From Henriciella sp. (GTDB lineage: Bacteria; Pseudomonadota; Alphaproteobacteria; Caulobacterales; Hyphomonadaceae), in assembly GCF_012960415.1 (NCBI RefSeq), contig NZ_DUBH01000043.1:513-64512 (forward strand): DNA of 64,000 nt. The letters are read 5' to 3'. The position numbers and the translations under genes were made by a program. Every line of letters starts with the position of its first letter. Within the stretch, counting starts at the first letter, position 1. The notes beneath the pieces were generated by a model. It saw nothing but the letters and a program-made list of their open reading frames with translations. It searched no databases and had not been told where the DNA came from. Shown in pieces: positions 19,193-40,061 of this stretch.

Positions 19193-19228
19193 GGACTTAA
19201 CCCTCAAAATCTAGGACTTGGGTCAGAC

Positions 19229-20725: not shown

Positions 20726-20786
20726 ACGGCTTTCTCCCATATCTATCTGGCGGCAGTTTATCTTTGGCGCACACGCAGTTAAACAC

Positions 20787-20817
20787 GCACATATGCAGGT
20801 TTAACCTGCATATGTGC
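20787..20817. promoter_or_regulatory. 31-bp perfect palindrome (15-bp arms), candidate LysR-type operator in the mmsA / lysR divergent intergenic region
   Basis: GCACATATGCAGGTT-T-AACCTGCATATGTGC was read directly and only the central base breaks the symmetry. It contains T-N11-A type cores. It lies 18 nt upstream of the regulator's GTG and 62 nt upstream of the mmsA ATG. Confidence 0.6.
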
Positions 20818-20834
20818 AGCCAAGGACAAGCCCC

Positions 20835-21731
20835 GTGAACTGGGACGACCTCAAACTCCTCCTCGAAATCAGCCGTCATGCGAAACTGTCTGACGCGGCC
20901 GCGCGCACAGGGCTCGACGCCACGACGGTCGGGCGGCGTCTGAGGCGGCTGGAAGCTGATCTCGGCCTGTCTTTGTTTGAGCGCACCCGGCGCGGCCACA
21001 TCCTGACGTCTGCGGGCGAAGCGATCGTCGCCAAGGCCGAGGCGATCGAGCAGTCTGCACTCGAAATCTCCGCGCAGGCCGACATAGGCGGGACGGAGGC
21101 GAGCGGCCGGGTCAGGCTAGGCGTCACTGAAGGCCTAGGAAATGCGCTGATCGCCCCTGCCCTAGCGAGCTTTCGCGACCGCTATCCATCTATCGCGCTC
21201 GACCTTATCGCCATGTCGGGCTTTGCAAGCGTGCCCAAGCGCGAGGCCGATATGGCCGTCATGCTGGCGCGGCCGACATCGGGCCGGTTGAAAGTGCGCA
21301 AGCTGTCAGACTATGCGCTGCACCTGTTTGCCAGCCGGGACTATCTCTCGCGCTGGGGCGCGCCGCAATCGCCCGCCGATCTCTCCCAGCACACGCTGAT
21401 CGGTTATGTGGACGATCTCATCTACTCACCGCAGCTTCGTTATCACGCTGAAATCGCACCGGATCTGACGCTGCAATTCTGCAGCCCGTCCATCATCGCG
21501 CAATTGCAGATGGCGCGGGCGGGGCTTGGCATCGCAGTCCTGCCAAACTTCATGGCGGCGCGCGATGAGGCGCTTCAGCCCGTCCTGAAGGAGGATGTCC
21601 GCGTCGAGCGGAGCTTCTGGCTGACGACCCATGAGGATCTCGCGCCCCTCGCCCGAATCCGCGCGCTGAGCGTCTTTCTTGCTGAGCTCTTCGACACGCA
21701 CCGGGACATTGTGCTGCCAGAAGGCGGCTGA
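20835..21731 (+). CDS. LysR-family transcriptional regulator, divergent from the valine-catabolism operon
   Basis: N-terminal wHTH VNWDDLKLLLEISRHAKLSDAAARTGLDATTVGRRLRRLEADLG. GTG 20835 gives the usual LysR N-terminus. The ORF is open from 20814. Confidence 0.85.
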   Translation: MNWDDLKLLLEISRHAKLSDAAARTGLDATTVGRRLRRLEADLGLSLFERTRRGHILTSAGEAIVAKAEAIEQSALEISAQADIGGTEASGRVRLGVTEGLGNALIAPALASFRDRYPSIALDLIAMSGFASVPKREADMAVMLARPTSGRLKVRKLSDYALHLFASRDYLSRWGAPQSPADLSQHTLIGYVDDLIYSPQLRYHAEIAPDLTLQFCSPSIIAQLQMARAGLGIAVLPNFMAARDEALQPVLKEDVRVERSFWLTTHEDLAPLARIRALSVFLAELFDTHRDIVLPEGG

Positions 21732-24352: not shown

Positions 24353-24383
24353 AAAAAAAGCCCCCAATCCGAAGATCAGGGGC
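24353..24383 (-). terminator. Rho-independent terminator downstream of abiEii, preceded by a second hairpin at 24390-24409
   Basis: On the minus strand: GCCCC - 14-nt loop - GGGGC followed by TTTTTTTG. Upstream of it is a second hairpin, GGGTGCG-N6-CGCACCC. Confidence 0.7.
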
Positions 24384-24478
24384 TTATTTGGGTGCGGGAG
24401 GGCGCACCCAACAAAAGAGTAAGCTAGTAATTCCTTTTATTTCAGAGGGTTAGAGGTTTCCCTGCGAGCAACGATCAT

Positions 24479-25420
24479 TCAAAGTTCCGGCAGGCGCCGG
24501 CTGATGCGTGCCAGAATATCGTCAAAGAGTGCAGGCTCCCTGTAGTAAAGCGCTCGTGACTTCGCATAAGCGTCCGCGTACGCCTTTCGCGTTTCTGCGT
24601 CGCTCAACAGAAAGGCTTCGTTCCTGGTGAGGTCCGGTTCATCTGCCTTGCGGAACCTTTTGGCCTTGTGGTCCTTGTACGCGTCTGTTCCGATGAACTC
24701 TTTCACTGAGGCGTCAGCGAGCAGGCAGTACACGTCATAATAGTGGCGCATGAAATTGACAGGCATGTCGCCGTCCGCCTGCTGCTTTCGGAATTTCGTT
24801 GAGATGGTCTGGAGCTTTTCGACAAAAGTATAGCCCGGCTCATAGCAAGGCACATCGACCGCGCGGGTGTCGGTCAGGTCTGCAATCCCACTCTCGACTG
24901 CAAGTTCGTAAGCCCAGGACGAAATCGTACATGGCCGGTTCGGCGCCACCTGGTCGAACCCGACTTCGAGCAGGATGCCTGCCTTCAGCCCTTCTGGCAG
25001 TGGATTCACCGACTCATACTTCAATCGAATGCCTGCGCCGCGATAGTGGCGTGTGTCGTCGAACTCTTCGTCGCGGACCACTTCGATAATGCCAGGAATT
25101 TTGATGGCTTCGGCCAGACCGTTGAAGAATTCGAGACGCGCCTTTACCTGCGCAGGCTTGTTGTGGTTTGGGCCATACTGGAGGTCGGTCTCTGGGTGGA
25201 TCAGGATGTCGATGTCTTCCGAAAAACGGTCGATGAGGCCGTATCCCTTTGACAGCGAAGTTCCGCCTTTCAGCTCAAACTTATAGTCAAGCTGCTGCAG
25301 TCCCCAGAGGCAGTGCATCAACCAGTAGTCTTTTTCGATGAGGCCCGGATCGATAGTGTTGTTTCGCGCAGCAACAGCGATGAGGTCGGCAAAATCAGGC
25401 AGTGCGTGCAGGAGGGTCAC
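24479..25420 (-). CDS. AbiEii/AbiGii-family nucleotidyltransferase toxin (type IV TA)
   Basis: IEKDYWLMHCL...FELKGGTSLSKGYGLIDRFSEDIDILI is the DUF1814/AbiEii signature. It overlaps the upstream antitoxin gene by 4 nt. Confidence 0.85.
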   Translation of the reverse strand: MTLLHALPDFADLIAVAARNNTIDPGLIEKDYWLMHCLWGLQQLDYKFELKGGTSLSKGYGLIDRFSEDIDILIHPETDLQYGPNHNKPAQVKARLEFFNGLAEAIKIPGIIEVVRDEEFDDTRHYRGAGIRLKYESVNPLPEGLKAGILLEVGFDQVAPNRPCTISSWAYELAVESGIADLTDTRAVDVPCYEPGYTFVEKLQTISTKFRKQQADGDMPVNFMRHYYDVYCLLADASVKEFIGTDAYKDHKAKRFRKADEPDLTRNEAFLLSDAETRKAYADAYAKSRALYYREPALFDDILARISRRLPEL

Positions 25421-26010
25421 GCGGCGGTTGCCTGATCAGGGTTCAATACAGGCTTGAGGAGCCTTGCAGCCCGCGCCGATCCGAAATCCTTCACCGCACG
25501 TGACAGTCGCGCGCGGTCCATACGTCGCGCACGCCTAAGTGCCTTGGGAAGCACTGCTGCCTTTTCCTCGGGAAGCCGATCGAGGTTGTGCAACAGATCC
25601 ACCAGGAGGAATTCTTCGCTGAGGTTTGAAGGAACAGAGGTCCGCATGCGGAAGTCATAGCGTCGGCCATCCAGCTCGAAATGGCCGTGCCGTTTGCGAT
25701 TATAAACTACCGGCTCATTGTAGAGCTGCGTCGTTCCCAATTCGAGGCTGTTATAGGCGTTTGGCGAAACCATAAGAAACCGGTCATCCCCCAGGAATGA
25801 CTCAACCAGCTTCTCCGGCTTGGCGGGTGCCTGCCCGAACCGAGTTTTCTTCGGAGCCATATAGAGCCCTGCCCCAACCTTTTCGAGGCGTCCTTCGTCA
25901 AGCAGCTGTCCAACATGTCGATCGACAGCGTTTGACCAGGTCGCAAGCTCCTTGCGCCGGTACACCTGTCCGGGGCGCAATTTCCTTTTTAGTTTTGCAA
26001 GCGCGGTCAT
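25417..26010 (-). CDS. AbiEi-like antitoxin / transcriptional regulator (wHTH, DUF6088-like)
   Basis: 197 aa with an N-terminal wHTH-like GQVYRRKELATWSNAVDRHVGQLLDEGRLEKVGAGLY. It sits immediately upstream of AbiEii and is translationally coupled to it. Confidence 0.65.
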   Translation of the reverse strand: MTALAKLKRKLRPGQVYRRKELATWSNAVDRHVGQLLDEGRLEKVGAGLYMAPKKTRFGQAPAKPEKLVESFLGDDRFLMVSPNAYNSLELGTTQLYNEPVVYNRKRHGHFELDGRRYDFRMRTSVPSNLSEEFLLVDLLHNLDRLPEEKAAVLPKALRRARRMDRARLSRAVKDFGSARAARLLKPVLNPDQATAA

Positions 26011-26599
26011 GTTCTGTCTCCATCACCCACAATATAGGGGTCATGCTCCATATTATGCAACATTTCTTATTAAAAAGTCATGCACAACAAAGACAATAAA
26101 TACTCTCGACACAGGCGCAACATATTGATTTTACGATGTTTTATAGAATGAGGAAGCAGGTCTCTTAATCACTGGAATGGCACAATCCGTACTAAACAAA
26201 AGGGTCTGGGGTCCAATTTATTTATGAATTGAAGCTCGTACGCAGCGAAACCAGGTTGCCCTTTCGCCAAGAGCCGACAATGGATTCCGAACCGCGAGTG
26301 ACGCGCCCAGTAATCGTGCTTGAAATTAAATTAATTCAACGCACTATGGCACTCAAAACTTCGCTTGTTGTGCAGATTGTTTGCAATTTGTAGCGCAAAC
26401 TGTGGTGCAGCCCTTTCGTGTTGTCAAAGTTCGACGCTGCCTATCAACGACATTCACATCGCTAACATGATTTGCTGGCCGTTCAAATTCGCGCTGGAGC
26501 GTAGCCATGCAACTTTTCGCTCGGGACTGACCCGCGGGTCTGGGTTGATCCTGCTCCGTTACGACAAACCTTGAGTGCTCAGAGGTTCTTTCTTGATTT

Positions 26600-26616
26600 A
26601 AACCCCTATGGGGTAT
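26600..26616. promoter_or_regulatory. CsoR-type-like palindromic operator, copy 1 (AAACCC-CTATG-GGGTAT)
   Basis: One of three copies of xTACCC-N5-GGGTAT. It lies 12 nt upstream of ATG 26628 and is flanked by TTGATT (26593-26598) and TATAAG (26614-26619). Confidence 0.55.
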
Positions 26617-26627
26617 AAGTGGTAGTC

Positions 26628-27014
26628 ATGAACTTTGTTGTCGCAACTCTCGTGACGGTATTTTTCAGCCTGTCGCAGGTGCTCTGCGCGTGTCCCGTCG
26701 ATATGTCGGCGACGAATAGCATGGCAACCGAGTTCACCGCTCATTCTCACCAGGCGCCCGCCGATGGGCCTGAGGCGCCCTGCGATGATGAGACTGATCA
26801 CTGCAAGCTTCAGACAGCAACGGTCGCCCAAGCCGACAAGACGGCGAACCCGGTCCAGCACGTATTAGGCGATACGACGCCCATCGGGCTTGCTACACCC
26901 TCATGGCAACACGCATGGAAGCGCGTCGTCAATGTCCGCACGCCCTGGCCTGAGGTCCGAAGTTACCTGCTGCAACAAACGCCAGTCACATTGAAGGTGC
27001 GTTCCCTGAGCTGA
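26628..27014 (+). CDS. Small Cys/His-containing protein with an N-terminal hydrophobic segment, first gene of the copAB cluster
   Basis: 128 aa: MNFVVATLVTVFFSLSQVLCACP...HSHQ...CDDETDHC. I recognised no family. Its position is analogous to the small regulatory or metal-binding ORFs upstream of copA in other cop loci. The alternative start is GTG 26619. Confidence 0.4.
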   Translation: MNFVVATLVTVFFSLSQVLCACPVDMSATNSMATEFTAHSHQAPADGPEAPCDDETDHCKLQTATVAQADKTANPVQHVLGDTTPIGLATPSWQHAWKRVVNVRTPWPEVRSYLLQQTPVTLKVRSLS

Positions 27015-27072
27015 TTTCGTGCGTCGCTGCATTAGCAGCCCGATTGCATAAATTCACCTCATGGAGACGATT

Positions 27073-28914
27073 ATGTTGAACAGACGACGTATGTTGCAGA
27101 CGGTGCTCGGCACCGGCGCAACCTTGGGGGCAAGCAGCCTCCTGCCCGCTTGGGCAAAATCTTCCAGCAACGGAAACCTTGGTGTGCCCTCACTTTCGGG
27201 CACGCGCTTCGACCTCGAAATCGGGCAGTTCCCGGTCAGGCTCAACGGCAAAGTCGGTATGGCAACCGGAATCAATGGCACACTTCCCGGTCCGCTCTTG
27301 CGGTTGCGCGAGGGCGATGACGTTACAATGAACGTCACCAACCGGCTTGCCGAAGACACTTCGATCCATTGGCACGGACTGCTTGTCCCCTTCCATATGG
27401 ACGGCGTGCCGGGCGTCAGCTTCCCGGGCATCAAACCGGGCGAAACGTTCAAATATCAGTTCAAGGTGCCGCAAAATGGCACTTACTGGTATCACTCCCA
27501 TTCTGGTCTGCAGGAACAACTCGGCCATTACGGTCCGATCGTCATAGATCCGGCAGGTACAGACCCAGTGGCTTATGACCGGGAATATGTGCTCGTCCTC
27601 AGCGACTGGAGTTTCACGCATCCGCACCGGATCTTCGACAAGCTCAAGAAGAATGCCGAGAGCCTGAATTTCAACCGCCCGACCCTGTCGAACCCAACCG
27701 GACTTGGCGGCATGTGGGGGCAGATGCGAATGAGCCCGCGCGATCTCGCAGACGTGACCGGCGAAACCTACACCTACCTGATCAATGGCCATTCGACGGC
27801 CGATAATTTCAATATGGTCTTCCAGCCGGGCGAGCGGGTTCGCCTGCGCATTATCAACGCCTCCGCCATGACCCTCTTCAATGTCCGCCTCCCGGGCTTG
27901 CCGATGACGGTGGTCCAGGCCGACGGTCTGAATGTCCAGCCGGTTGAGACCGACGAGTTCCAGATGGGCGTGGCCGAGACGTATGATGTCATCATCGCGC
28001 CGACCGAAGCGCGCGCCTACGCCTTTGTTGCCGAATCGATCGACCGCTCCGGCCAGGCCGTCGCCACGCTCGGCCCGCGTGCCGGTATGCGGGTCGATGC
28101 GCCTGCGCTTCGAGCTGTGCCGATGCTGACCATGCGGGACATGGGAATGGCCCATGGAGACATGGCGGGCATGTCAGGCATGGGGAGAATGGATCATGGT
28201 CCGGACACCGCGACGGCCGGGGACGACATGAAAGGCCACGACATGGGTGCCATGTCGATGATGCCCGATCCTCATGGTCCGGCGGTCCAGCCCGTCAAGA
28301 TTGAAGCAGATATAGAGCGCGGCCCCGGTGTCGCAAAAGTATCAGGCATGACGATGAGCCGCTTGGGCGAACCCGGTCTCGGGCTTGATGATGTCCCCCA
28401 CCGCACGCTCACCTATAACCAGCTTCGCGCGCTCGACATGAATGAGGACCATCGCCCGCCTGGCCGCGAAATTGTCATTCATCTGACGTCGAACATGGAA
28501 CGCTACATGTGGTCGTTCGACGGTGTAAAATTCTCCGAGGTAACCGAGTCAATCAAGTTCTACGAGGGTGAACGTGTTCGCCTGACGCTCGTAAACGATA
28601 CAATGATGCCACACCCGATCCATTTGCACGGCATGTTTTTCGATCTCGTGAATGGCGGTGGTCATCACATGCCTCGAAAGCACACAGTAACGGTCAAGCC
28701 TGCAGACAGGGTCAGCGTCGACATCACCGCAGAACATGTCGGTGACTGGGCGTTCCACTGCCATCTGCTTTACCACATGCACGCTGGCATGATGCAGGTC
28801 GTCAGCGTCATTCCGCCAGCAGACGATACGACACCAGCTGAAAAAATGCCGGCAGGTCAGATGAATATGCCCATGGACCATCACGGCATGAACCATGGGG
28901 AGGGAAAATCATGA
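27073..28914 (+). CDS. copA: Copper-resistance multicopper oxidase CopA/PcoA (Tat-exported)
   Basis: Twin-arginine signal MLNRRRMLQTVLGTGATLGASSLLPAWA. Cupredoxin motifs HWHG, WYHSH, HPIHLHG and HCHLLYHMHAGMM. Met/His-rich insert MGMAHGDMAGMSGMGRMDHG. GGAGA lies upstream of ATG 27073. Confidence 0.92.
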   Translation: MLNRRRMLQTVLGTGATLGASSLLPAWAKSSSNGNLGVPSLSGTRFDLEIGQFPVRLNGKVGMATGINGTLPGPLLRLREGDDVTMNVTNRLAEDTSIHWHGLLVPFHMDGVPGVSFPGIKPGETFKYQFKVPQNGTYWYHSHSGLQEQLGHYGPIVIDPAGTDPVAYDREYVLVLSDWSFTHPHRIFDKLKKNAESLNFNRPTLSNPTGLGGMWGQMRMSPRDLADVTGETYTYLINGHSTADNFNMVFQPGERVRLRIINASAMTLFNVRLPGLPMTVVQADGLNVQPVETDEFQMGVAETYDVIIAPTEARAYAFVAESIDRSGQAVATLGPRAGMRVDAPALRAVPMLTMRDMGMAHGDMAGMSGMGRMDHGPDTATAGDDMKGHDMGAMSMMPDPHGPAVQPVKIEADIERGPGVAKVSGMTMSRLGEPGLGLDDVPHRTLTYNQLRALDMNEDHRPPGREIVIHLTSNMERYMWSFDGVKFSEVTESIKFYEGERVRLTLVNDTMMPHPIHLHGMFFDLVNGGGHHMPRKHTVTVKPADRVSVDITAEHVGDWAFHCHLLYHMHAGMMQVVSVIPPADDTTPAEKMPAGQMNMPMDHHGMNHGEGKS

Positions 28915-29714
28915 TGAAACCGAATTTGGCAGCCCCTCTCCTCCTCGGCTTCGCGCTCTACGCGACCGGCAGCGCGTTCGCGGAAGACACAAATCAAACC
29001 CCGCCCTGGGATCAGGCCGACGCCATCTACGGCGAGGATGCAATGGCGGACGCTCGCCGGGACGTTCTTGCGGAAGGCGGAGACCAGAAGAGCTTCTACA
29101 TCCTCTTCAACCAGCTCGAGGCTCAGATGTCTGACGAGGGCGACAGTTTGTACTGGAACGGACAGGCTTGGTATGGGGGCGATATCAACAAGCTCTGGTT
29201 CAAGAGCGAGGGCCGCGCCTCTCTGAATGGAGAGGGCGTGGATGATGCCGAGATCCAGGCGCTCTATTCCCGCGCGGTTGCGCCTTTCTGGAATGTTCAG
29301 GCGGGCGTTCGCTACGACATCGAACCGGATAGTCTCGCGCATGGGGTCGTCGCACTGAATGGTCTGGCGCCCTACTGGTTCGAAGTCGACGCTTCCGCCT
29401 TTCTCAGTGAAAAAGGCGATGTAACGGCCCGCATCGAGGCTGAATATGAGTTGCTCCTGACCCAGCGGTTGATCTTGCAGCCTCGGATCGAAGCAAATCT
29501 TTCCGCGCAGGACATACCGGAAAGGGAAACGGGCGCGGGACTTAGCACACTCGATGCCGGCTTGCGGCTTCGTTATGAAATCAGGAGGGAGTTTGCGCCT
29601 TATGTCGGCGTCGAATGGCAAAGCGCCTTCGGTGAGACACGCGACATGATCAAAGCCGCAGGCGGTGAAGGCGACGATATCGTCTTTCTCGTGGGCCTGC
29701 GGACCTGGTATTAG
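28911..29714 (+). CDS. copB: Copper resistance protein B (outer-membrane CopB/PcoB)
   Basis: ATGA overlap with copA. Has a signal peptide, and the CopB-family C-terminal barrel region reads ...EAEYELLLTQRLILQPRIE...LRLRYEIRREFAPYVGVEWQ...LVGLRTWY. Confidence 0.85.
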   Translation: MMKPNLAAPLLLGFALYATGSAFAEDTNQTPPWDQADAIYGEDAMADARRDVLAEGGDQKSFYILFNQLEAQMSDEGDSLYWNGQAWYGGDINKLWFKSEGRASLNGEGVDDAEIQALYSRAVAPFWNVQAGVRYDIEPDSLAHGVVALNGLAPYWFEVDASAFLSEKGDVTARIEAEYELLLTQRLILQPRIEANLSAQDIPERETGAGLSTLDAGLRLRYEIRREFAPYVGVEWQSAFGETRDMIKAAGGEGDDIVFLVGLRTWY

Positions 29715-29723
29715 GAGAACAAA

Positions 29724-30818
29724 ATGGGCGGTTTCATAGAACCCAATATTCACCCCGTGCTGGTGCATTTTACCTATGCCCTCGGCACATCTGCAGCCTT
29801 GGCATATGTGGCTGGCCTCCTCGTACCTGCAGGCCGCTGGCGCGACAGCCTTCGACCGGCCGCCGACTGGATGCTGGCATTGGCTGCCTTGGCGGTTCTG
29901 GCCACCATCGCGGCCGGGTTTCAGGCCTATTACAGCGTTGCTCACGATGCGCCGTCCCATGAAGCGATGACAACCCATCGCAACTGGGCTGTTCCCACGG
30001 GCCTCGCATTACTGGCCCTCGCCGGTTGGCGCTGGCTGAGAAGGGCCTCGTCGCCCGGCCCGGTATTTGCGATCAGTGCCCTGGCGGTGGCAGGTCTTTT
30101 GACGGTTACAGCGTGGTGGGGAGGCACAATTGTCTACAAGTACGGACTTGGCGTGCAGACCCTTCCTGAAGCCAGCGGGCCAGGCCACGATCATGATCAT
30201 GGCGGCGGAGCCGGTCATGGCGACCAAGGCACCGTAAATTCAACAGACGATCATCAAGACGCTCACGGAGCGCCTCCATCCGACACGATGGATGGATCAT
30301 CGGCGAGCGGCGATGGACATGATCACGACCATACCGACGGTGCAGCTGATCGAGAAATGTCAGGCACGGTCCCCGCCGGACACGACAACTCCGACGGCCA
30401 TCACGACACCAAACCGGTCTCGACTGATGAACAGGCGATCCTGGATATCATGGCCGCGATCGAAACCGGTTGGGAGACCGGCGATGGCGAACTGTTCCGA
30501 CAGAACTTTCTCGACTGGTCAGGCGCCCGGTACTTTGAGTCAGGCGGCGAGAATACTGGCCTGCTCGACCTTGTCGAAAATCATGTCGAGCCCGAAAAAG
30601 ATACCATTCCGGATCTCGAACTCGACTTCTCGAATATAGACGTGCAATTCGAGGGAAGTGACTTTGCATGGGCTGTCGCGGACACAGCGATCAGTGGAAC
30701 GTTCAGCTCCAATGGCGAACGCCTGGAGCGTATCGGGAAACAAACGGTGCTGTTCCGCAAGGTCGCCGGCACCTGGCAGGTCATTCACACGCACTCGTCC
30801 TCTCGTGCGCCGCGATAA
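29724..30818 (+). CDS. Fusion protein: DUF2231-like 4-TM domain, His/Asp-rich linker, NTF2-like (SnoaL/DUF4440-like) domain
   Basis: The N-terminus IEPNIHPVLVHFTYAL...HRNWAV...TAWWGGTIVYKYGLGV resembles DUF2231. The linker reads GHDHDHGGGAGHGDQG...DGHDHDHTDG...HDNSDGHHD. The C-terminus ILDIMAAIETGWETGD...VLFRKVAGTWQVIHTHSS is NTF2-like. AGGAGA RBS is present. Confidence 0.6.
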   Translation: MGGFIEPNIHPVLVHFTYALGTSAALAYVAGLLVPAGRWRDSLRPAADWMLALAALAVLATIAAGFQAYYSVAHDAPSHEAMTTHRNWAVPTGLALLALAGWRWLRRASSPGPVFAISALAVAGLLTVTAWWGGTIVYKYGLGVQTLPEASGPGHDHDHGGGAGHGDQGTVNSTDDHQDAHGAPPSDTMDGSSASGDGHDHDHTDGAADREMSGTVPAGHDNSDGHHDTKPVSTDEQAILDIMAAIETGWETGDGELFRQNFLDWSGARYFESGGENTGLLDLVENHVEPEKDTIPDLELDFSNIDVQFEGSDFAWAVADTAISGTFSSNGERLERIGKQTVLFRKVAGTWQVIHTHSSSRAPR

Positions 30819-30887
30819 GGAGGAAATCCAAACTGCCGCGTGCTGGCCAAGTTGAAATGCAATCGGCAAGCGGCGATGATATTGAGT

Positions 30888-30904
30888 ATACCCCATATGG
30901 GTAT
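30888..30904. promoter_or_regulatory. CsoR-type-like palindromic operator, copy 2 (ATACCC-CATAT-GGGTAT)
   Basis: Perfect 6-bp arms. TTGAGT lies directly upstream (30882-30887). The site ends 6 nt before ATG 30911. Confidence 0.55.
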
Positions 30905-30910
30905 TAGGTC

Positions 30911-31315
30911 ATGACTGTCCTGTCCTTCCCCCAGAAACCCTACTTCAAACTGGCCCATAAAGTGCGGGCTGGACATTGGTTTGAAGCTGACGCTGCTGCT
31001 TTTGTGAGCACCGAAGGCGACGTCACGGCACGGGTCGAGGCCGAATATGAGTTGCTGCTAACCCAGCGTCTGATCCTTCAACCCCGCTTAGAAGCGAGCC
31101 TTTCTGCTCAGGATATGCCTGACCTGCAACTCAGTTCTGGTTTAACCAGCGTTGATGCCGGCCTGCGCCTTCGCTACGAAATTGTTCGCGAATTCGCGCC
31201 ATATATTGGCGTCGAATGGCAAAGCGCTATTGGCGATACCGCAGACTTCATTGAGGCGTCTGGAGGCGAAAAAGATCAAACGGCATTGCTCGTCGGTGTG
31301 CGAACCTGGTTCTAA
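30911..31315 (+). pseudogene. copB: Truncated copB paralog (C-terminal ~110 aa of CopB only)
   Basis: From about nt 30975 the translation (WFEADAAAFVSTEGDVTARVEAEYELLLTQRLILQPRLE...LRLRYEIVREFAPYIGVEWQ...LVGVRTWF) aligns with CopB residues ~155-267 encoded at 28911-29714. The first ~22 aa are unrelated. There is no signal peptide and no N-terminal half. Confidence 0.75.
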
Positions 31316-31333
31316 ACATGATGGAGATCTAAA

Positions 31334-31549
31334 TTGGCCGATATGGGGCATATGATTTTCGGCAATCTTGGCGCGCTGATTTTTTGGGGCGTCCTGGCAT
31401 TGCTGATCTATGTCGCTGTGCGTGCGACCATCAATCGGGACGGGGCGGACTCCAAGTCCAACGACCCGGTCGATATCCTCCGGCGACGATATGCGCGCGG
31501 CGAAATAGACAAGGAAGAATTTGATCGTCGCATGAAAGACCTGAGCTAA
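31334..31549 (+). CDS. SHOCT-domain small membrane protein
   Basis: One TM segment (IFGNLGALIFWGVLALLIYVAV) followed by ILRRRYARGEIDKEEFDRRMKDL, the SHOCT motif. The start is uncertain (TTG 31334, ATG 31343 or ATG 31352). Confidence 0.6.
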   Translation: MADMGHMIFGNLGALIFWGVLALLIYVAVRATINRDGADSKSNDPVDILRRRYARGEIDKEEFDRRMKDLS

Positions 31550-31646
31550 CGCCGCTTGCAGACCCCACAATTCTTGAGGGGTCAGGCAAGTGTCCGGCGT
31601 ATCACCCAGACAATGCCAGTCGCTGAAGATAGCGACGCTCACGCAT

Positions 31647-32705
31647 ATGGCTAACTGGGAGACGCTTTTGGGCGATTTGATTGAACCGAACCTGCATCCG
31701 ATTCTGGTGCATTTTGCCTATGCGCTTAGCCTCACGGCTTTGGCCTCTTATGTGTTGGCCGCCTTTTCGCCTGTCGAGCGATGGCGAGAGACTCTGCGCC
31801 CGGCCGCGGACTGGATGCTGGCCTTTAGTGCGATCGCAATCGTGCTGACAATCGCGGCAGGATTTCAAGCCTATTACACGGTAGATCATGACGCGCCGTC
31901 GCATGCAGCGATGACCACCCACCGCAACTGGGCTGTACCATCCGGCCTCGCCATCCTCCTATTGGCGGCCTGGCGATGGACGGGAAGAGCAAAAGCCGCC
32001 TCAGGCATTTTCGTCACAGGCTTGGCTGCGGCCGCGCTCGCCTTAACCGTCACGGCCTGGTGGGGCGGCAAAATCGTCTATGGCTACGGCCTTGGGGTCA
32101 AAAGCCTGCCGCAGGTGACAGGAGATGGCCACGACCATGATCATGGCGGCGGCGGCGTCACGGCAGATCATGATATGGATCCCATGCCAGATTTAGCGCC
32201 GACCGCGGCTGCCCATGAAAACTCCGATGGCCATCACGACGTCGCTCCAATCAGTCATGACAATAGTGATGGGCACCATGATGGAGACAGCCCGTCCACA
32301 ACACCCGCGCCACAAGCTGGATCGCCGGCGAGCGTCGCTGACGCTTTCGGCGAAGCGTTAAAAGCAGGTGATGAGGCGGCGCTGCGCGCGCTGTTTTCCC
32401 CCGACGTCGTGATCGCTGAGGGCGGCGGCGCCGAGCGCTCATTCGAAGAGTATGCCGGCCATCATATGCCCGCAGACATGGCTTATACAGCCGCGGTTTC
32501 ATTCGATCTCAAAGACCGAAACATTCTCGAGAATAGCGATATCGCTACGGTGATCTCTCAATCGGAGATTAATGGCGCCTATAGAGGCGAGCCCGTGCAC
32601 CGCCAAGCTATGGAAACCATGGTTCTCAAACGCGACGCTGGGGTCTGGAAGATTCACCATGTCCATTGGTCATCCGCGCCGATCACCGAAGATCACGAGC
32701 ACTGA
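31647..32705 (+). CDS. Second DUF2231-like / His-rich / NTF2-like fusion protein (paralog of 29724-30818)
   Basis: Roughly 65 % identity by eye over the membrane domain (LIEPNLHPILVHFAYAL...HRNWAVPSG...TAWWGGKIVYGYGLGV). The linker reads GDGHDHDHGGGG...HENSDGHHD...HDNSDGHHD. The NTF2-like C-terminus is diverged (MVLKRDAGVWKIHHVHWSS). ATG 31647 aligns with the paralog's start. The ORF is open from 31590. Confidence 0.6.
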   Translation: MANWETLLGDLIEPNLHPILVHFAYALSLTALASYVLAAFSPVERWRETLRPAADWMLAFSAIAIVLTIAAGFQAYYTVDHDAPSHAAMTTHRNWAVPSGLAILLLAAWRWTGRAKAASGIFVTGLAAAALALTVTAWWGGKIVYGYGLGVKSLPQVTGDGHDHDHGGGGVTADHDMDPMPDLAPTAAAHENSDGHHDVAPISHDNSDGHHDGDSPSTTPAPQAGSPASVADAFGEALKAGDEAALRALFSPDVVIAEGGGAERSFEEYAGHHMPADMAYTAAVSFDLKDRNILENSDIATVISQSEINGAYRGEPVHRQAMETMVLKRDAGVWKIHHVHWSSAPITEDHEH

Positions 32706-32708
32706 TAA

Positions 32709-33782
32709 ATGGCTGGGGGTGGCCAAACACAGCTTGCGGACCCGCTGATGGGTCAAAACCACTTCACCGCGGTGCGGTGGGTGTTGGCGATCGCTGTAGT
32801 ACTCGGTCATATCTGGCTCCTCACGACAGGGTTCGAACCGTTTCGCATCCACGAATGGACTGCCAGCTATATGGCCGTGAACGGGTTCTTCGTCCTGTCA
32901 GGCCTCTTGATTGCCAAGAGTCTTCATACAAGGCGCGATATGAAGGCTTATGCAGTTTCACGGTTTCTGCGGATCTACCCAGCTCTGGTGATTATACTTG
33001 CGGCTTTTGTCCTCGTCTTCGCGCCTGTCTATTCGGCCGAGGGCGGCGGATCATTGTTTCAGCCGGAGACCTGGCAATACACCTACAAAGTCTTGGCGCT
33101 TGGCGATCCCGACAGCGCGCCCGCACAGATATTCTCTCAGAATTTGGAAACCGACTTTAACGGGCCGCTCTGGACCATTCGGTTCGAGCTAGCAGCGTAC
33201 ATCCTAGCGGGCATCGCGTTCATGTTTGGCACCGTCAACGGCCCATGGCGTGTTCTTAGCGTCTTCTTGCTTGTGCAATCGGTCTATCTTAGCGCGCCTT
33301 TGTTCATCGATACGAGTGCGCTCCCGCCGAGCGTGATGTCCTTGCTCCGCCTCTCATCGGCCTTTCTGCTCGGAATGACGCTTTGGCAGTGGCCTATTTT
33401 GCGCAGACCGCCCCTCTTGGCGGTCGCAGGTCTGATTGCAGCGTTCGCGCTCCTTGGCGGCGGCCCCCTCGGCGAATTGTTTGCGACCCTTGCCCTCACA
33501 AGCCTAATGCTTCGAGCTGGATTGCCAAAACGTGCGTCCGTCCGCATCGCCAAAATTCCGGACTATTCGTACGGGATTTATATCTGGCACTACCCGCTTT
33601 TGCAGGTATTTCTGGTTGGACAACCAGATGTTAGCCCCGCTGTCCTGGCTATAATGACCGCGCCGCTCATTCTGCTCGTCGCGGCCACTTCGTGGCATGT
33701 CATCGAAAAGCCAGTGCTTGCTCTGAAGCTGCGCGCCCGCTCGATAAACCAAAAAACCGTATCGCCGGAGGTGGCCGCATGA
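32709..33782 (+). CDS. Acyltransferase family 3 (integral membrane O-acyltransferase)
   Basis: 357 aa with about 10 TM segments. Acyl_transf_3-like features: VRWVLAIAVVLGH at the N-terminus, FFVLSGLLI, PLWTIRFELAAY, SYGIYIWHYPL. Confidence 0.75.
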   Translation: MAGGGQTQLADPLMGQNHFTAVRWVLAIAVVLGHIWLLTTGFEPFRIHEWTASYMAVNGFFVLSGLLIAKSLHTRRDMKAYAVSRFLRIYPALVIILAAFVLVFAPVYSAEGGGSLFQPETWQYTYKVLALGDPDSAPAQIFSQNLETDFNGPLWTIRFELAAYILAGIAFMFGTVNGPWRVLSVFLLVQSVYLSAPLFIDTSALPPSVMSLLRLSSAFLLGMTLWQWPILRRPPLLAVAGLIAAFALLGGGPLGELFATLALTSLMLRAGLPKRASVRIAKIPDYSYGIYIWHYPLLQVFLVGQPDVSPAVLAIMTAPLILLVAATSWHVIEKPVLALKLRARSINQKTVSPEVAA

Positions 33783-34141
33783 CCTCCGCGTCGCATTCAC
33801 TGATTGAAACATTGCTTCGGGCTCAAAGCCAATTTGAGAAGCTTATAAGCAGCGCATCTGAAAACACACCCGCAACTAAGTTTGCAGAAATGGCATTCAT
33901 GACGGCCGAGGTGTGCATTCTTCTTTCTGAGGCATTTGCGAAGTCGATCGAACACCGCCGAGAAAATCTCCTCAGGGCACTACGAGCGATGGCAGGTATT
34001 TTCAGAGGCCTTGAAAGAGCCTCGCTGGAAACGACGAGCAACAGCCCGAACAGGCTCGGGACCGCGTGCGGTCAATGCGAAACAGCGATCTACGCTTTTC
34101 TTAAAGCAACCGAGCCTGACACTCAGGGGAGATTGAAATGA
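33779..34141 (+). CDS. Hypothetical helical protein with three Cys (one in VCILL, two in a CxxC pair), no family recognised
   Basis: 120 aa. ATGA overlaps with both neighbours (33779-33782 and 34138-34141). Predicted helical, with VCILL and CGQCE. Confidence 0.4.
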   Translation: MTSASHSLIETLLRAQSQFEKLISSASENTPATKFAEMAFMTAEVCILLSEAFAKSIEHRRENLLRALRAMAGIFRGLERASLETTSNSPNRLGTACGQCETAIYAFLKATEPDTQGRLK

Positions 34142-34863
34142 GCGCGGCGCCCTGGTCTGGCGCGTTGGCCATCGGGGTCGGCTGGGCCGCGCTCGACGCT
34201 CGCCTTGGCAAGAACACGGCACATGCTCATTTGGCACATCAGGCCATACTCGGGCTGGATGGCGCAGTCGTGGTGACGACAAACTCAGAGATAGTAGCCC
34301 CGACCGGCAAGGCTATTCACATCCCTACTGGGCAGACCCATTCCATCGGTCCTGAGGGACGCCTGACGCGCTCGATCTATATTGACCCGCGCTTTTCCGG
34401 AATTCGAAACGATCAGCAATGCAATCAGCCTGCCTGCCTTTCGGATGATCTATCAGCCGCTCTAGAGCACATCAGCGACATTAATCAGGCGCGCGATTGG
34501 GCGAAAAGGTTCGCGGGCCGGTTGCCTGGTTCGGCCATAGATTCACGCCTGCAAAAAGCCCTTGGCAACGTTCGCGCACTCGCCAATCCCGCCGCTCTGG
34601 CGCGCGAGCTCGCGCTGTCTCCAACTCGGCTGCGAGAGATCGTCAAGGCGGACTTCGGTGTTCCGCCCAGCAAGCTATTGCAATGGTTGCAATTGCTCGG
34701 CGCCGCTAAGGCAATGGAGGCGTCGTCCAGTCTCGCTGATGCAGCGGCCGCGGGCGGTTTTGCTGACCAGGCGCATTTCACTCGCCGACTGCAACAATGG
34801 TTCGGGGTGACCCCAAAAATTGGCCTGTCGGGTTTGGAGGTGTCCGTCGATGATCTCAGCTGA
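34138..34863 (+). CDS. AraC-family transcriptional regulator (cupin-like N-terminus, HTH_18 C-terminus)
   Basis: The C-terminus ALARELALSPTRLREIVKADFGVPPSKLLQWLQLLGAAKAM...AAAGGFADQAHFTRRLQQWFGVTP is a typical AraC double HTH. Confidence 0.8.
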   Translation: MSAAPWSGALAIGVGWAALDARLGKNTAHAHLAHQAILGLDGAVVVTTNSEIVAPTGKAIHIPTGQTHSIGPEGRLTRSIYIDPRFSGIRNDQQCNQPACLSDDLSAALEHISDINQARDWAKRFAGRLPGSAIDSRLQKALGNVRALANPAALARELALSPTRLREIVKADFGVPPSKLLQWLQLLGAAKAMEASSSLADAAAAGGFADQAHFTRRLQQWFGVTPKIGLSGLEVSVDDLS

Positions 34864-34947
34864 TCCCTCATCCAACGCGGATTGGTCGGCGCGCTTGTCT
34901 TGCTCAAGACAACGATGCGGGCCCTAAGTATATATACGGAGTAACCA

Positions 34948-34964
34948 ATACCCCCTATGGGTAT
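34948..34964. promoter_or_regulatory. CsoR-type-like palindromic operator, copy 3 (ATACCC-CCTAT-GGGTAT, extendable to AATACCC/GGGTATT)
   Basis: Perfect 7-bp arms. It lies 75 nt upstream of ATG 35040 (small membrane protein followed by the Cu ATPase). TATTAA overlaps the right arm. Confidence 0.55.
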
Positions 34965-35039
34965 TAACTCATTTTCGAAGCAACGCATCGCTGTCGCACG
35001 AATTATGTGGCGGCAACAACCAAAGAGAAGGAAAACACC

Positions 35040-35291
35040 ATGCGCCTCATCCCCACTGGGCACGCCCTATCCATTTTTCTCGCCATCACGTTTACGCTCT
35101 GTATCGCATGGGGGTTGGTCGCACCGCCTAGTCTCCACATGCACGGTGCGTGGGAACAGCTCCTACCCGGATTTGAATTCATTTCGGTTTCAAGCTTCTT
35201 CCTCGGCCTCATCGAGTCCTACGTTTACGGCTGGTATATCGCGCTTGTCTTCGTACCGCTCTACCGACTGTTCAATCGCCAAAAAGCCTAA
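35040..35291 (+). CDS. Small two-TM membrane protein upstream of the Cu ATPase (possibly DUF5676-like)
   Basis: 83 aa: MRLIPTGHALSIFLAITFTLCIAWGL...HMHGAWEQLLPGF...GLIESYVYGWYIALVFVPLY. AAGGA lies upstream of ATG 35040. The family name is from memory and unverified. Confidence 0.5.
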   Translation: MRLIPTGHALSIFLAITFTLCIAWGLVAPPSLHMHGAWEQLLPGFEFISVSSFFLGLIESYVYGWYIALVFVPLYRLFNRQKA

Positions 35292-35377
35292 TGCCAGAAC
35301 TCCATTAGAGATCAGCCGCCCAACCCGGGCGCTGACCTTTAAGAGTGACACTGAAGCCAAACCCCGGAGGGGCGGAT

Positions 35378-37636
35378 ATGACCAATACCGATCATAAACA
35401 TCACGACCATGGACATCATGATCACCACCACGGGGATGATCATGATTGTTGCCATGGTGGCGGAGACGCCGATGCCGGCGCGGACGGCAAATATGATCTC
35501 GTCCCGCAGGGCTACACAGGCACGGTCTATACATGCCCGATGCATCCAAACGTTCGCGACGTCCGAAACTCCGGGTGCCCTATCTGCGGCATGGCGCTGG
35601 AGCCAGAAGGTGTTGTCGTAGGCGAAGAAGACACTTCAGAACTCGACGATATGACCCGTAGATTCTGGATCAGCGCCATCTTCACCATCCCGCTTGCCAT
35701 TTACGCCATGGGTGACCTGATCTCCGGCAAACCCCTCGAAGGGCTTTTGCCCGCCGGTTGGTCCCAATGGGCTCAATTCGTGCTGGCGGCTCCTGTCGTC
35801 CTCTGGGGCGGATGGCCATTCTTCGTCCGTGGTGTTCGGTCGGTACGGACGATGAACCTCAACATGTTCACCCTTATCTCTCTCGGCGTAGGCGTTGCTT
35901 TTGTCTTCTCGCTTGTTGCAACAGCTTTGCCAGGCATCTTTCCGCACGCATTTCGCAATGAGGCTGGCGAAGTCGCTGTATATTATGAAGCGGCCGCGGT
36001 GATCACGACGCTCGTATTGCTCGGGCAGGTTCTTGAGCTGCGAGCCCGAAGCGCAACATCGGGAGCAATCCGCGCGCTCCTGGAACTCACCCCGCCGACA
36101 GCAAACCGAATCGTGGCGGACGGACAGGAAGAAGAGGTTTCCGTCGACGATGTCCAGAGCGGTGACCGGCTACGGGTCCGGCCAGGCGAAAAAGTACCTG
36201 TCGACGGCGAAGTTGTTGAAGGGCGTTCGAATGTCGACGAGTCCATGATCACTGGAGAACCTATTCCAGTCGAGAAAGCAGCAGGGGATCCGATTACCGG
36301 CGGTACAGTTAACGGCACCGGATCACTCGTCATGGCCGCGACGCGCGTCGGCGAAGATACAATGCTATCGCAAATCGTACGCATGGTCGCCGAAGCTCAG
36401 CGCTCACGCGCGCCCATCCAGAAGCTCGCCGACACAGTGGCCGGCCTGTTTGTCCCGGCCGTCGTCGTGATCGCGATTATCACTTTCATCGTCTGGGCGA
36501 TTTTTGGGCCTCACCCGGCCATGGCTTTTGCGATCGTCAACGCCGTGGCTGTGTTAATTATTGCGTGTCCCTGCGCGCTTGGCCTTGCAACGCCGATGTC
36601 AATTATGGTCGCCACAGGAAAGGGCGCACAGAGCGGCATTCTGATCAAAAATGCTGAAGCGCTCGAGACGTTTGAAAAAGTCGACACGATCGTCGTCGAT
36701 AAGACCGGCACTTTGACAGAGGGCCACCCCAAACTTGTGACAGTCGAGCCTGCGAGTGGTCTCGCAGAAGCAGACTTCCTGGCTTACGCTGCCGCGATTG
36801 AACGCGGGAGCGAGCACCCTCTTGCGCAAGCCATCGTCAACGGGGCCGAAGAGCGCGGCGCAGCGCGCCTGGAGTCGACCGATTTTGAATCAGTCACCGG
36901 AGAAGGCGCGCAGGGCCGGGTCGATGGAAAGCTTTTCGCCATCGGCAACGCCAAGATGATGCGCCGGGTCGGTGCTTTTGACGAAACACTGAAAGCCCAT
37001 GCTGAAACCTATCGCCGCGACGGCCAGACGGTGATGTTCGCCGCTCTGGACGGCAAACCGGCGGGCCTGATTGGGGTCGCCGATCCAATCAAAGAAACGA
37101 CCCCTGAAGCCATAGCCGCCTTGCACAAGGCGGGCATGAAAGTCGTCATGCTGACGGGCGACAGCCTGGCAACAGCGCAAGCGGTTGCACGCCAAATTGG
37201 CATTGATGAGGTGGAGGCCGATGTGTCACCAGAAGACAAAAACCGGATCGTGCGCGAACTCCAATCGAAAGGTGCGGTCGTCGCCATGTGCGGCGACGGC
37301 ATCAATGACGCGCCTGCCCTTGCTCAAGCGGATATCGGAATAGCCATGGGAACCGGTACAGATGTGGCCATGGAGAGCGCCAGTGTCACCCTGGTCAAAG
37401 GCGATCTTCGCGGTGTCGCCCGCGCGCAGCGGCTGAGCCGCGCGACGATGGGCAATATTCGCGAAAACCTGTTCTTTGCCTTTATCTATAATTCGCTCGG
37501 CGTGCCGGTTGCTGCCGGCATCCTCTATCCGTTCTTTGGGCTCCTTCTCAGTCCAATCATCGCCGCCGCCGCGATGAGCCTCAGTTCATTCTCAGTCATT
37601 GCGAATGCGCTGCGACTTCGCTCCGTCAAACTATAA
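35378..37636 (+). CDS. Heavy-metal (Cu+) translocating P1B-type ATPase
   Basis: His-rich N-terminus [29 protein letters not shown]...CPICGM zinc-ribbon-like metal-binding domain. TGE. CPC (36566-36574). DKTGTLT (Asp 36698-36700). [18 protein letters not shown] precedes ATG 35378. Confidence 0.92.
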
Positions 37637-37653: not shown

Positions 37654-38151
37654 ATGTCAAAATGGATTCTTGGTGCCTTGGCCGCCGCCCTTTTTGCGCT
37701 TGCCGCTGGGTTTTTCGTCTCGGGCGGTTTGGCGAGCCCCGCAAATGCGCAAACCATTACCGTCTATAAAACACCCTGGTGTGGATGCTGTACGGCCTGG
37801 ATAAAACACCTTCAGCGCGATGGTCTTGAAGTACGTGTTATCGAACGCGAAGACCTTGCACCTGTGCGGGCCTCGCTGAACGTGCCCGATGAACTTGCCT
37901 CCTGCCACACCGCGTCGGTTGATGGCTACGCGATTGAGGGCCATGTCCCAGCCTCGGAAATTCGTAAGCTTCTTGAAACCCGGCCAGATGCGGCGGGGCT
38001 TTCGGTGCCCGGCATGCCAATGGGCTCTCCCGGAATGGAAACCACAAGCCCGCCTGACGCCTATGATGTCATTCTGTTCAGTGCGGAGCAGCAAAGCGTA
38101 TTCGCGAGCTATGTCGGCCGCTTCCCGGCTGAACAGGCGGTTGGGCAATGA
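37654..38151 (+). CDS. DUF411 (CopG-like) periplasmic metal-binding protein
   Basis: Signal peptide followed by VYKTPWCGCCTAWIKHL...CHTASVDGYAIEGHVP...GMPMGSPGME, the DUF411 signature. Confidence 0.8.
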   Translation: MSKWILGALAAALFALAAGFFVSGGLASPANAQTITVYKTPWCGCCTAWIKHLQRDGLEVRVIEREDLAPVRASLNVPDELASCHTASVDGYAIEGHVPASEIRKLLETRPDAAGLSVPGMPMGSPGMETTSPPDAYDVILFSAEQQSVFASYVGRFPAEQAVGQ

Positions 38152-39479
38152 AATCCGAAATCTATAAAAAAGGCTCGCTAAGTCTCGCAGGAACCATTGC
38201 GATGGGCACCGGTGTCATGATTGGCGCCGGGATCTTCGCACTGACCGGGCAAGTCGCGCAATTCTCAGGACCGGCGTTTCCGCTCGCCTTTTTGCTTGCG
38301 GCCGTGGTCAGCGGGTTCAGCGCCTACACCTACATCAAAATGTCGAACAAATATCCGTCGGCCGGCGGCATCGCGATGATCCTTCAAAAAGCCTATGGGC
38401 CAACGACAATTGCCGCCGCCAGCGCGCTGCTCATGACTATGTCGATGATCATCAATGAGAGCCTCGTCGCTCGCACATTCGGCGCCTACACATTGCAACT
38501 CTTTGATGTTTCGAAAGACAGTATTCTGGTACCAGTTCTAGCCGTCGGATTGATCGTTTTTGCGTTTGTAATCAACATATCCGGAAACAAAATCATTGGC
38601 GGCGTATCCAAAGTTGCTGCGGTCCTGAAAGTTGGCGGCATTCTGATCTTTGCTGGCGCGGCGCTCTGGGCGTCCGGCCTTTCTTTTGAAGCAGCCTCCT
38701 CGGCCACAACAAATGAGACTGGACCTGGGGGATTCCTCGCCGGCGTCGCCCTCGCCATTCTTGCTTTTAAAGGGTTCACCACGATCACCAATAGCGGCGA
38801 TGAGGTGAAAAACCCCAATAAGAATGTCGGCCGCGCGATCATCTGGTCGCTGGCGATCTGCCTTGTTGTCTACATGGCTGTCGCTCTAGCGGTTGGGTCC
38901 TCACTGACACTTGAAGAAATTGTCGCAGCCAAGGATTTCTCGCTCGCAGAAGCCTCGCGCCCGGCCTTTGGTGATTTTGGCGTGGCGTTTACCGTGATCA
39001 TCGCAATCATTGCCACCGCGTCGGGACTACTCGCCAGTGTCTTCGCGGTTTCGCGCATGCTCGCCATGCTGACGAATATGAACCTGATCCCCCACAAGCA
39101 TTTTGGCATGCCCGGCGGCATCCAGAAACACACGCTTGTCTATACTGTTGTTTTGGCTGCCTTCCTGGCCGCTTTCTTCGATCTTGGGCGGATCGCTTCA
39201 CTCGGCGCGATTTATTATCTCGTAATGGATATTATTATCCACTACGGCGTGCTGCGCTATTTACGCGAAGATGTCGGCGCCCGCGCCTCTATTCTAGTCG
39301 CCGCCATATTATTCGACCTGATTGCCCTTGGCGCCTTCCTGTTCATCAAAGCGACCGCAGACCCGATGATCGTCATCATCGCGATTGGGTCAATGGCTGC
39401 AATCTTTGCTTTCGAAGCGCTCTATCTCGGCCGGATCCGCGACAAGGAGGCGCCCGATCATGCGCACTCTCACTCATGA
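38148..39479 (+). CDS. APC-superfamily amino acid permease
   Basis: 443 aa with about 12 TM segments. The N-terminal GTGVMIGAGIFALTGQVA is typical of APC transporters. ATGA overlap with the DUF411 gene. Confidence 0.75.
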   Translation: MKSEIYKKGSLSLAGTIAMGTGVMIGAGIFALTGQVAQFSGPAFPLAFLLAAVVSGFSAYTYIKMSNKYPSAGGIAMILQKAYGPTTIAAASALLMTMSMIINESLVARTFGAYTLQLFDVSKDSILVPVLAVGLIVFAFVINISGNKIIGGVSKVAAVLKVGGILIFAGAALWASGLSFEAASSATTNETGPGGFLAGVALAILAFKGFTTITNSGDEVKNPNKNVGRAIIWSLAICLVVYMAVALAVGSSLTLEEIVAAKDFSLAEASRPAFGDFGVAFTVIIAIIATASGLLASVFAVSRMLAMLTNMNLIPHKHFGMPGGIQKHTLVYTVVLAAFLAAFFDLGRIASLGAIYYLVMDIIIHYGVLRYLREDVGARASILVAAILFDLIALGAFLFIKATADPMIVIIAIGSMAAIFAFEALYLGRIRDKEAPDHAHSHS

Positions 39480-39632: not shown

Positions 39633-40061
39633 ATGATCCTGGCGATTGTCATCTCCGCAGTCACCTTCGTGCTATCCGGCGCGCTTCACTATGCGATTGT
39701 CTCAGGCGCAATCCGCCACCTCGGAGCTGCGAGCTATCATCGCGGCCGCAAACTTGTCACTGCGCTTTGCGTCTCGGGGATTGCGCATCTCGCGGCGGCC
39801 AGTCTTTACGCCCTCGCTTATGGCCTGGGCCGCGCCCTAGAGATAGGTGATCTAAGCGGTGATACGCCGACGACAGCCATGGACGTCTTTTACTTTTCGC
39901 TCGTCAGTTACACCTCACTCGGTCTTGGCGACATTGTTCCAACCGGCCATTTGCGCTTCGTCGCCGGTGTCGAGGCGCTGAATGGTTTTCTGCTCATCAG
40001 TTGCTCGGCGGCGATGCTGTTTCTGTTCATGACGGAGCAGAGCGAGGAACGCAGGCAATGA
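39633..40061 (+). CDS. Small two-TM potassium-channel-like protein (Ion_trans_2)
   Basis: 142 aa. The pore helix plus filter-like FYFSLVSYTSLGLGDIVP is followed by an inner helix. Confidence 0.6.
   Translation: MILAIVISAVTFVLSGALHYAIVSGAIRHLGAASYHRGRKLVTALCVSGIAHLAAASLYALAYGLGRALEIGDLSGDTPTTAMDVFYFSLVSYTSLGLGDIVPTGHLRFVAGVEALNGFLLISCSAAMLFLFMTEQSEERRQ

Follow-up and report, generated by a model that had tools for sequence, protein, structure and literature searches.

Predicted CsoR-type operators in a mosaic copper-resistance island of Henriciella

In a 64-kb stretch of Henriciella sp. DNA (contig NZ_DUBH01000043.1; the window hereafter means this whole stretch), a copper-resistance island carries three copies of a 17-bp dyad upstream of plus-strand genes. 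We consider it probable that these dyads are operators of CsoR, and that a CsoR encoded elsewhere represses the downstream units at low copper and is released by Cu(I). The identification of the dyads as CsoR operators, first proposed from the window alone, is well founded, since the motif equals that of published operators, its footprint is conserved in related islands, and, of the 29 csoR genes found there, 25 have it at their start. The island itself holds no csoR, and its mosaic make-up explains the missing repressor gene.

The dyads and their promoter context

The first dyad (26600-26616, AAACCCCTATGGGGTAT) is the predicted CsoR-type operator in the promoter of a sORF128-copA-copB-DUF2231 unit. 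The second (30888-30904, ATACCCCATATGGGTAT) is the predicted operator of a DUF5676-ATPase unit in the parental island and is here orphaned before a copB fragment. The third (34948-34964, ATACCCCCTATGGGTAT) is the predicted operator of the DUF5676-ATPase-DUF411-permease-channel unit of another island type, termed L033-type below after a related locus. The sequence-only reading had placed its three 17-mers at exactly these positions. Its motif, TACCC-N5-GGGTA, was also recovered (3 matches in the window with at most one mismatch, against 0.41 expected), but the 6-5-6 layout that it gave the dyad is better replaced by a 7-3-7 one, ATACCCC-N3-GGGGTAT. With up to two mismatches, this form has exactly 3 matches in the window against 0.03 expected from dinucleotide-preserving shuffles, and 0 of 100 shuffles reached three, which bears out the claim that the recurrence is not due to chance. 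Each copy is one position off the perfect dyad: the left arm is AAACCCC in copy 1, and the right arm is TGGGTAT in copies 2 and 3.

These sequences closely follow characterized CsoR sites. The consensus of Streptomyces lividans CsoR is ATATACCCCTNAGGGGTATAT, and its copZA operators contain TACCCCCTAGGGGTA; in this species, TAC-N9-GTA around the C/G tracts is essential for CsoR binding, and swapping the TAC/GTA bases abolished it (PMC3902906). Dyads 2 and 3 read TACCCC(A/C)TATGGGTA and have this TAC-N9-GTA form of the type-2 CsoR operator, and ATACCCCCTAGGGGTAT is the exact dyad 2 of the related loci L001-L008. Dyad 1 is AAC-N9-GTA, with a canonical right arm only, and this AAC deviation is kept in all the copA-unit sites. 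Other published sites are those of Staphylococcus aureus copA and copX, ATACCtataGGGGGTAC and ATACCctggGTGGGTAT (PMC5947656), and the Bradyrhizobium CsoR box, TATACCCCTACCGGGTATA, which overlaps the -10 element of a csoR gene whose mRNA is leaderless (PMC5057107).

In the window, the promoter-like frame of unit 1 (26593-26619, plus strand) consists of a -35-like TTGATT (26593-26598), dyad 1, and TATAAG (26614-26619) over the right arm of the dyad, with a spacer of 15 bp. Dyad 2 has TTGAGT at 30882-30887 and TATTAG at 30902-30907, 14 bp apart, and TATTAA lies over dyad 3 at 34962-34967. All the -10-like and TTGA-type hexamers that had been pointed out are thus present. A strict sigma-70 scan (16-18 bp spacer) called no plus-strand promoter over any of the dyads, so the evidence for the promoter architecture is comparative. 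Footprints were taken from the otherwise unalignable upstream regions of 9 copA units, in loci with CopA proteins 79-100% identical, and of 17 ATPase units; the only conserved blocks are TTGA, the dyad arms and TATAnn. The copA-unit footprint is made of CTTGA, 3-4 nt, AAACCCC-N3-GGGGTATA, about 9 nt and the ATGAAC start of sORF128, while in the ATPase units TTGAnT abuts the dyad, the 17-bp dyad acts as spacer and TATAnn follows. In both alignments, the arms are fixed and the central 3 nt vary freely. The dyads lie between the conserved TTGA and TATAnn blocks, 12-76 nt 5' of the start of the first gene. They thus appear to occupy the -35/-10 spacer and overlap the -10, a position at which a bound repressor would occlude RNA polymerase.

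The ATG of sORF128 follows TATAAG by 8 nt and is preceded by no Shine-Dalgarno sequence; a start this close to the -10 region suggests that its mRNA is possibly leaderless. The two sORF128-copA promoters of L012 and L013 (around 9530-9560) differ in having TGTCCCCC-N3-GGGGGTGTA in place of AAACCCC-N3-GGGGTAT, a variant dyad that may correspond to a different operator specificity.

One could also see the 17-mers as ends of mobile elements or as terminator hairpins. Module boundaries do lie near the dyads, since similarity to some islands begins at 26573-26590 and the chimera junction described below falls at 30921, and dyad 3 with its tail is flagged as terminator-like. However, the three copies resemble one another over the 17 bp and the short hexamers of the promoters but no further, and neither a transposase nor an integrase gene adjoins them. 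L081 lacks the T-run that follows dyad 3, and fixed arms around 3 varying nucleotides fit a protein-binding dyad. We regard this explanation as extremely improbable, and we reject the repeated mobile-element end that the sequence-only reading had set against its own proposal.

csoR in related loci and its absence from the window

The relatives of the island were gathered through the window CopA as 80 loci in species-representative genomes, nearly all from Hyphomonadaceae and allied marine Alphaproteobacteria (among them Hyphomonas, Henriciella, Aquisalinus, Algimonas, Ponticaulis, Hirschia and Robiginitomaculum). About 35 of the 80 contain the dyad, whose arms are invariant and whose centre is free to vary, which confirms the conservation of the motif in homologous cop islands that had been put forward as a check. 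By tblastn, 29 csoR genes belonging to two clades were found in these loci. ATAC-N9/10-GTAT occurs within 140 bp of the start in 25 of them, mostly 5-12 nt before the ATG; the background frequency of this pattern is 0.006 per 100 bp.

The csoR gene of L002 (20881-21156) illustrates the nature of the linked regulator. Its product matches PF02583 with an E-value of 1e-26 (93.5 bits against a cut-off of 22.8 bits), has the copper sensor RicR as its best NCBIfam match, and aligns to solved CsoR structures (4M1P, 6e-15; 4ADZ, 6e-14; also 2HH7 and 3AAI). The Cys/His/Cys ligands, in RYCID and DDHIATC, align with the corresponding positions of 4M1P and 4ADZ; the roles of these ligand residues follow PMC3902906, PMC5057107 and established background. 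The His of the x-Cys-His-Cys Cu(I) ligand set separates CsoR from CstR. The RLxR motif and the helix-2 Gln are kept as well, RRLARIEGQ and CIDVIRQ of the L002 protein aligning with S. lividans CsoR. In the same locus (18765-21156), as in L001, L003-L005, L015 and L069, a DUF305 gene and an MBL-fold/rhodanese fusion precede csoR. The fusion resembles persulfide dioxygenase, a gene setting reminiscent of the persulfide sensor CstR; the regulator nevertheless has the Cys-His-Cys copper ligands.

As the sequence-only reading had stated, the window contains no CsoR-family open reading frame (ORF). The best tblastn hit in the 64 kb with CsoR, RcnR and FrmR sequences as queries has an E-value of 0.15, and the Pfam scans of 30 window ORFs gave no match to PF02583; a tblastn search of the same kind readily detects csoR in the related loci. 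At E<=1e-10, the CsoR relatives number 2092, csoR being very common in Hyphomonas and Henriciella, and several of the loci hold two copies. Among the named relatives, Hyphomonas atlantica is closest to the right-hand segment of the window, and no CsoR of this species appears among the listed members of ten CsoR clusters.

A recombinant island and the source of its repressor

Two island types account for this absence. The canonical one, found in L001-L009 (Hyphomonas, Henriciella and Aquisalinus, with CopA 97-100% identical to that of the window), starts with dyad 1 followed by sORF128-copA-copB-DUF2231, continues with dyad 2 followed by DUF5676-ATPase-DUF411-permease-channel-DUF305-(MBL-rhodanese), and ends with the dyad ATACCCTGTATGGGGTAT followed by csoR-p139, so that csoR follows the copA start at a distance of about 10 kb. 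The second type is that of H. atlantica L033, of L032 and, in a more diverged form, of L081-L083. Its order is copA-copB-SHOCT-DUF2231-acyltransferase-h120-AraC-dyad-DUF5676-ATPase-DUF411-permease-channel-HlyD-ABC; it carries a single dyad, and no csoR lies within 10 kb. The csoR-less islands comprise that of the window, L030, L032, L033 and L081-L089.

The window is 99.5% identical to the L002-type island from 24356 to 30921, where the likeness stops, and 96.9% identical to the L033-type island from 30975 to at least 40411. The recombination junction between them (30922-30974) is a stretch of 53 bp that matches neither representative, L002 or L033. The joint lies within the L033-type copB and 17 nt past the L002-type dyad 2, and the same chimera is present in two further assemblies, L030 and L084. 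Dyads 1 and 2 thus come from the csoR-bearing type and dyad 3 from the csoR-less one. Judged from these alignments, the window island is a recombinant of the two types, whose joining removed the csoR module.

Dyad 2 is best read as a scar of this event, with a promoter that reads into a truncated copB. The 40 bp around it carry 7 substitutions with respect to L002, beside 6.5 kb at 99.5% identity; they include the -10 position, TATACT in L002 and TAGGTC in the window, so this promoter may be weak. The substitutions and the unmatched 53 bp (30880-30975) suggest that a third donor contributed or that the sequence decayed locally. The genes beyond the copB remnant, through which transcription from dyad 2 would continue, follow copA-copB with no intervening dyad in the parental second island. 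The earlier picture of three plus-strand units, each headed by a dyad, therefore holds as far as position is concerned, but not as a set of three native units, since the sites stem from two recombined islands and the second unit is such a scar.

The point at which near-identity to L002-type islands begins on the left varies from genome to genome (24356, 26293 or 26573-26590), and in several of them it lies 10-27 bp upstream of dyad 1. Given edges just upstream of dyad 1, the exchange of cop modules apparently takes place at the borders of promoters. Recent horizontal transfer is indicated by the 99-100% identity of the island across Hyphomonas, Henriciella and Aquisalinus. A search of a plasmid collection gave no close relative of the island, and an exact look-up of the window CopA returned no record.

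Any repression of an island that lost its csoR module must come in trans, and we propose that it comes from the product of a csoR gene located elsewhere in the genome. At low copper, the apo-CsoR tetramer (two tetramers per site in the Streptomyces model) would bind the TAC-N9-GTA/G-tract dyad and, lying over the -35/-10 spacer and the -10, exclude RNA polymerase. Cu(I) bound at the Cys-His-Cys site would free CsoR from the DNA, and the units would then be transcribed. Binding, the response to copper, the exact promoter elements and the trans-acting csoR of this genome are what we infer from the patterns above.

Several points weigh against this proposal. The left arm of dyad 1 is AAC and not TAC, and the right G-tract of dyads 2 and 3 is weakened to TGGG. 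The strict sigma-70 scan finds no promoter at dyads 2 and 3, and the sequences at the -10 position after them (TAGGTC and TAACTC) are poorer than the TATAnn of their relatives. The csoR of the source genome is itself postulated. Finally, the CsoR paralogues CstR and RcnR, which respond to other effectors, use similar-looking operators, so the dyad alone is no proof of copper sensing.

Some of these features could be taken to mean that the dyads are relics, decaying in a genome devoid of cognate CsoR, with promoters that are constitutively open or otherwise controlled. The lack of csoR in 64 kb, the G-to-T change in the right G-tract of dyads 2 and 3, and the cluster of substitutions around dyad 2 would all fit such decay. 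However, the natural csoR operator of S. lividans has the same C4/G3 asymmetry (PMC3902906), and csoR is very common in both genera. Moreover, the L033-type lineage retains its dyad with no csoR within 10 kb, and in the diverged L081-L083, whose h120 is 59% identical to that of the window, the dyad is perfect, ATACCCCTATGGGGTAT. A perfect dyad kept through such divergence in a csoR-less lineage argues for continued selection and hence for a trans-acting binder. We therefore hold decay to be unlikely.

The regulator could also be sought within the island. The sequence-only reading had left two options, a CsoR encoded elsewhere or one of two local proteins, namely h120, a 120-aa helical protein (33779-34141, plus strand), and an AraC-family regulator with an N-terminal cupin (34138-34863, plus strand), whose start overlaps the h120 stop. 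In favor of the latter, alone or together with h120, the two genes immediately precede dyad 3, their linkage to it is constant in L033-type islands, and h120 has two invariant Cys. However, both genes are absent from about 30 loci that bear the same dyad, where it abuts csoR instead. The h120 homologues are a handful, all from L033-type islands, and the protein belongs to no Pfam or NCBIfam family and gives no pairwise alignment with CsoR. Its AlphaFold2 model shows four helices with low confidence (pLDDT 62.5), and the best match of this model in the PDB, a Csp copper-storage bundle, is not significant (E 0.42). The idea of h120 as a cryptic CsoR was rejected on these grounds. Binding of the dyad by the AraC protein, with or without h120, is in our view very unlikely, and of the two options the one of a regulator encoded elsewhere is favored.

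A better candidate for an AraC target than the dyad is an invariant 19-bp box, CTAAGTATATATACGGAGT (34924-34942, plus strand), located 5 bp upstream of dyad 3, with the palindrome GTATATATAC inside it. Each of the 12 loci whose island has h120 and the AraC gene holds a single copy of the box, no copy is seen outside them, and the ATPase promoters that carry it have no TTG -35 of the kind found in the other ATPase-unit promoters. The box may serve as a binding site of the AraC protein, or it may be a core promoter of an alternative kind. This leaves room for a hybrid circuit, a doubtful possibility to us, in which the AraC activator of the island, perhaps with a metal-binding h120, is required for expression and the host CsoR exerts a veto, or in which the pair has replaced CsoR.

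The remaining genes of the island were assigned by Pfam and NCBIfam scans of the window ORFs. The left edge of the L002-type segment holds an AbiEii toxin gene (24479-25420, minus strand), which forms a type IV toxin-antitoxin pair with its upstream partner (25417-26010, minus strand); all the following genes are on the plus strand. The sORF128 gene (26628-27014) encodes a small Cys/His protein with a hydrophobic N-terminus and no Pfam or NCBIfam family. It is narrowly distributed (3 homologue clusters in a large protein database) and is kept upstream of copA, with an invariant ATGAAC start, in L001-L016, L030 and L069. It is followed by copA, a copper-resistance multicopper oxidase (27061-28914; TIGR01480, E 1e-224), a full-length copB for the outer-membrane copper resistance protein B (28911-29714), and the first copy of a DUF2231-SnoaL fusion membrane protein (29724-30818). 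The copB remnant (30911-31315) corresponds to the C-terminal half only, positions 85-208 of the 208 of the Pfam CopB profile. After it come a SHOCT-domain small protein (31334-31549), the second DUF2231-SnoaL fusion, of L033-type origin (31647-32705), and an acyltransferase-3 family membrane protein (32709-33782). Downstream of dyad 3, a DUF5676 two-TM protein (35040-35291), preceded by a GAAGGA Shine-Dalgarno sequence, leads to a copper-exporting P1B-type ATPase with an N-terminal HMBD (about 35378-37636; the longest ORF starts at 35345, and relatives are called at 752 aa). The unit then continues with a DUF411 (CopG-like) protein (37654-38151), an amino-acid-permease-family transporter (38148-39479) and an Ion_trans_2 small channel protein (39633-40061), the last two being syntenic with both island types. 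An HlyD/ABC-2 transporter comes after the channel gene, and the island is flanked by housekeeping genes. Upstream of it are two very long ORFs (446-7786, 2446 aa; 11923-16125, 1400 aa). Window scans with Rfam and for tRNA were empty.

Significance and comparison with known systems

The motif, the CsoR family, its occurrence in Alphaproteobacteria, a leaderless csoR and the control of acquired loci in trans have all been published, and no new mechanism is involved here. What is new is an uncharacterized Hyphomonadaceae regulon that includes copA-copB, together with island mosaicism as the explanation of why the repressor is missing. A widespread and horizontally exchanged copper-resistance island of marine Hyphomonadaceae thus receives a predicted regulator and operator, and the CsoR regulon of Proteobacteria would extend to a copA-copB multicopper-oxidase operon. 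Through recombination at promoter/operator edges, islands would arise whose operators need a repressor gene located outside them. For annotation purposes, the dyad should be a reliable marker of CsoR-controlled promoters in Hyphomonadaceae.

The closest published parallel for the operators themselves is the csoR/copZA1/copZA2 system of S. lividans (PMC3902906), whose core TACCCCCTAGGGGTA has the same sequence as dyad 2 in the parental island and in which, as in the canonical island, several operators are found per genome, one of them at csoR itself. The targets differ: copZA in Streptomyces, and here the copA-copB multicopper-oxidase and DUF5676-ATPase operons of an alphaproteobacterial host, in a window devoid of the repressor gene. 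The csoR-cueA divergon of Bradyrhizobium liaoningense (PMC5057107) shares an alphaproteobacterial Cys-His-Cys CsoR and a box over the -10; its csoR is leaderless, and in the islands studied here the distance between dyad and ATG is likewise 5-12 nt, for both csoR and sORF128. However, the one box of B. liaoningense lies beside csoR in a divergent promoter, whereas the window has three boxes in a mosaic island from which csoR is absent. In this last respect, the best comparison, and a direct precedent for control in trans, is the copXL locus of S. aureus USA300 (copB-mco; PMC5947656, PMC6191537), an acquired copper operon that likewise has a CsoR operator and no csoR. There, the core-genome CsoR is the known repressor in trans and its binding was demonstrated by an electrophoretic mobility shift assay (EMSA), while for the Henriciella island such a CsoR is predicted; and, in contrast to copXL, the absence of csoR from the window would arise from recombination between two island types.

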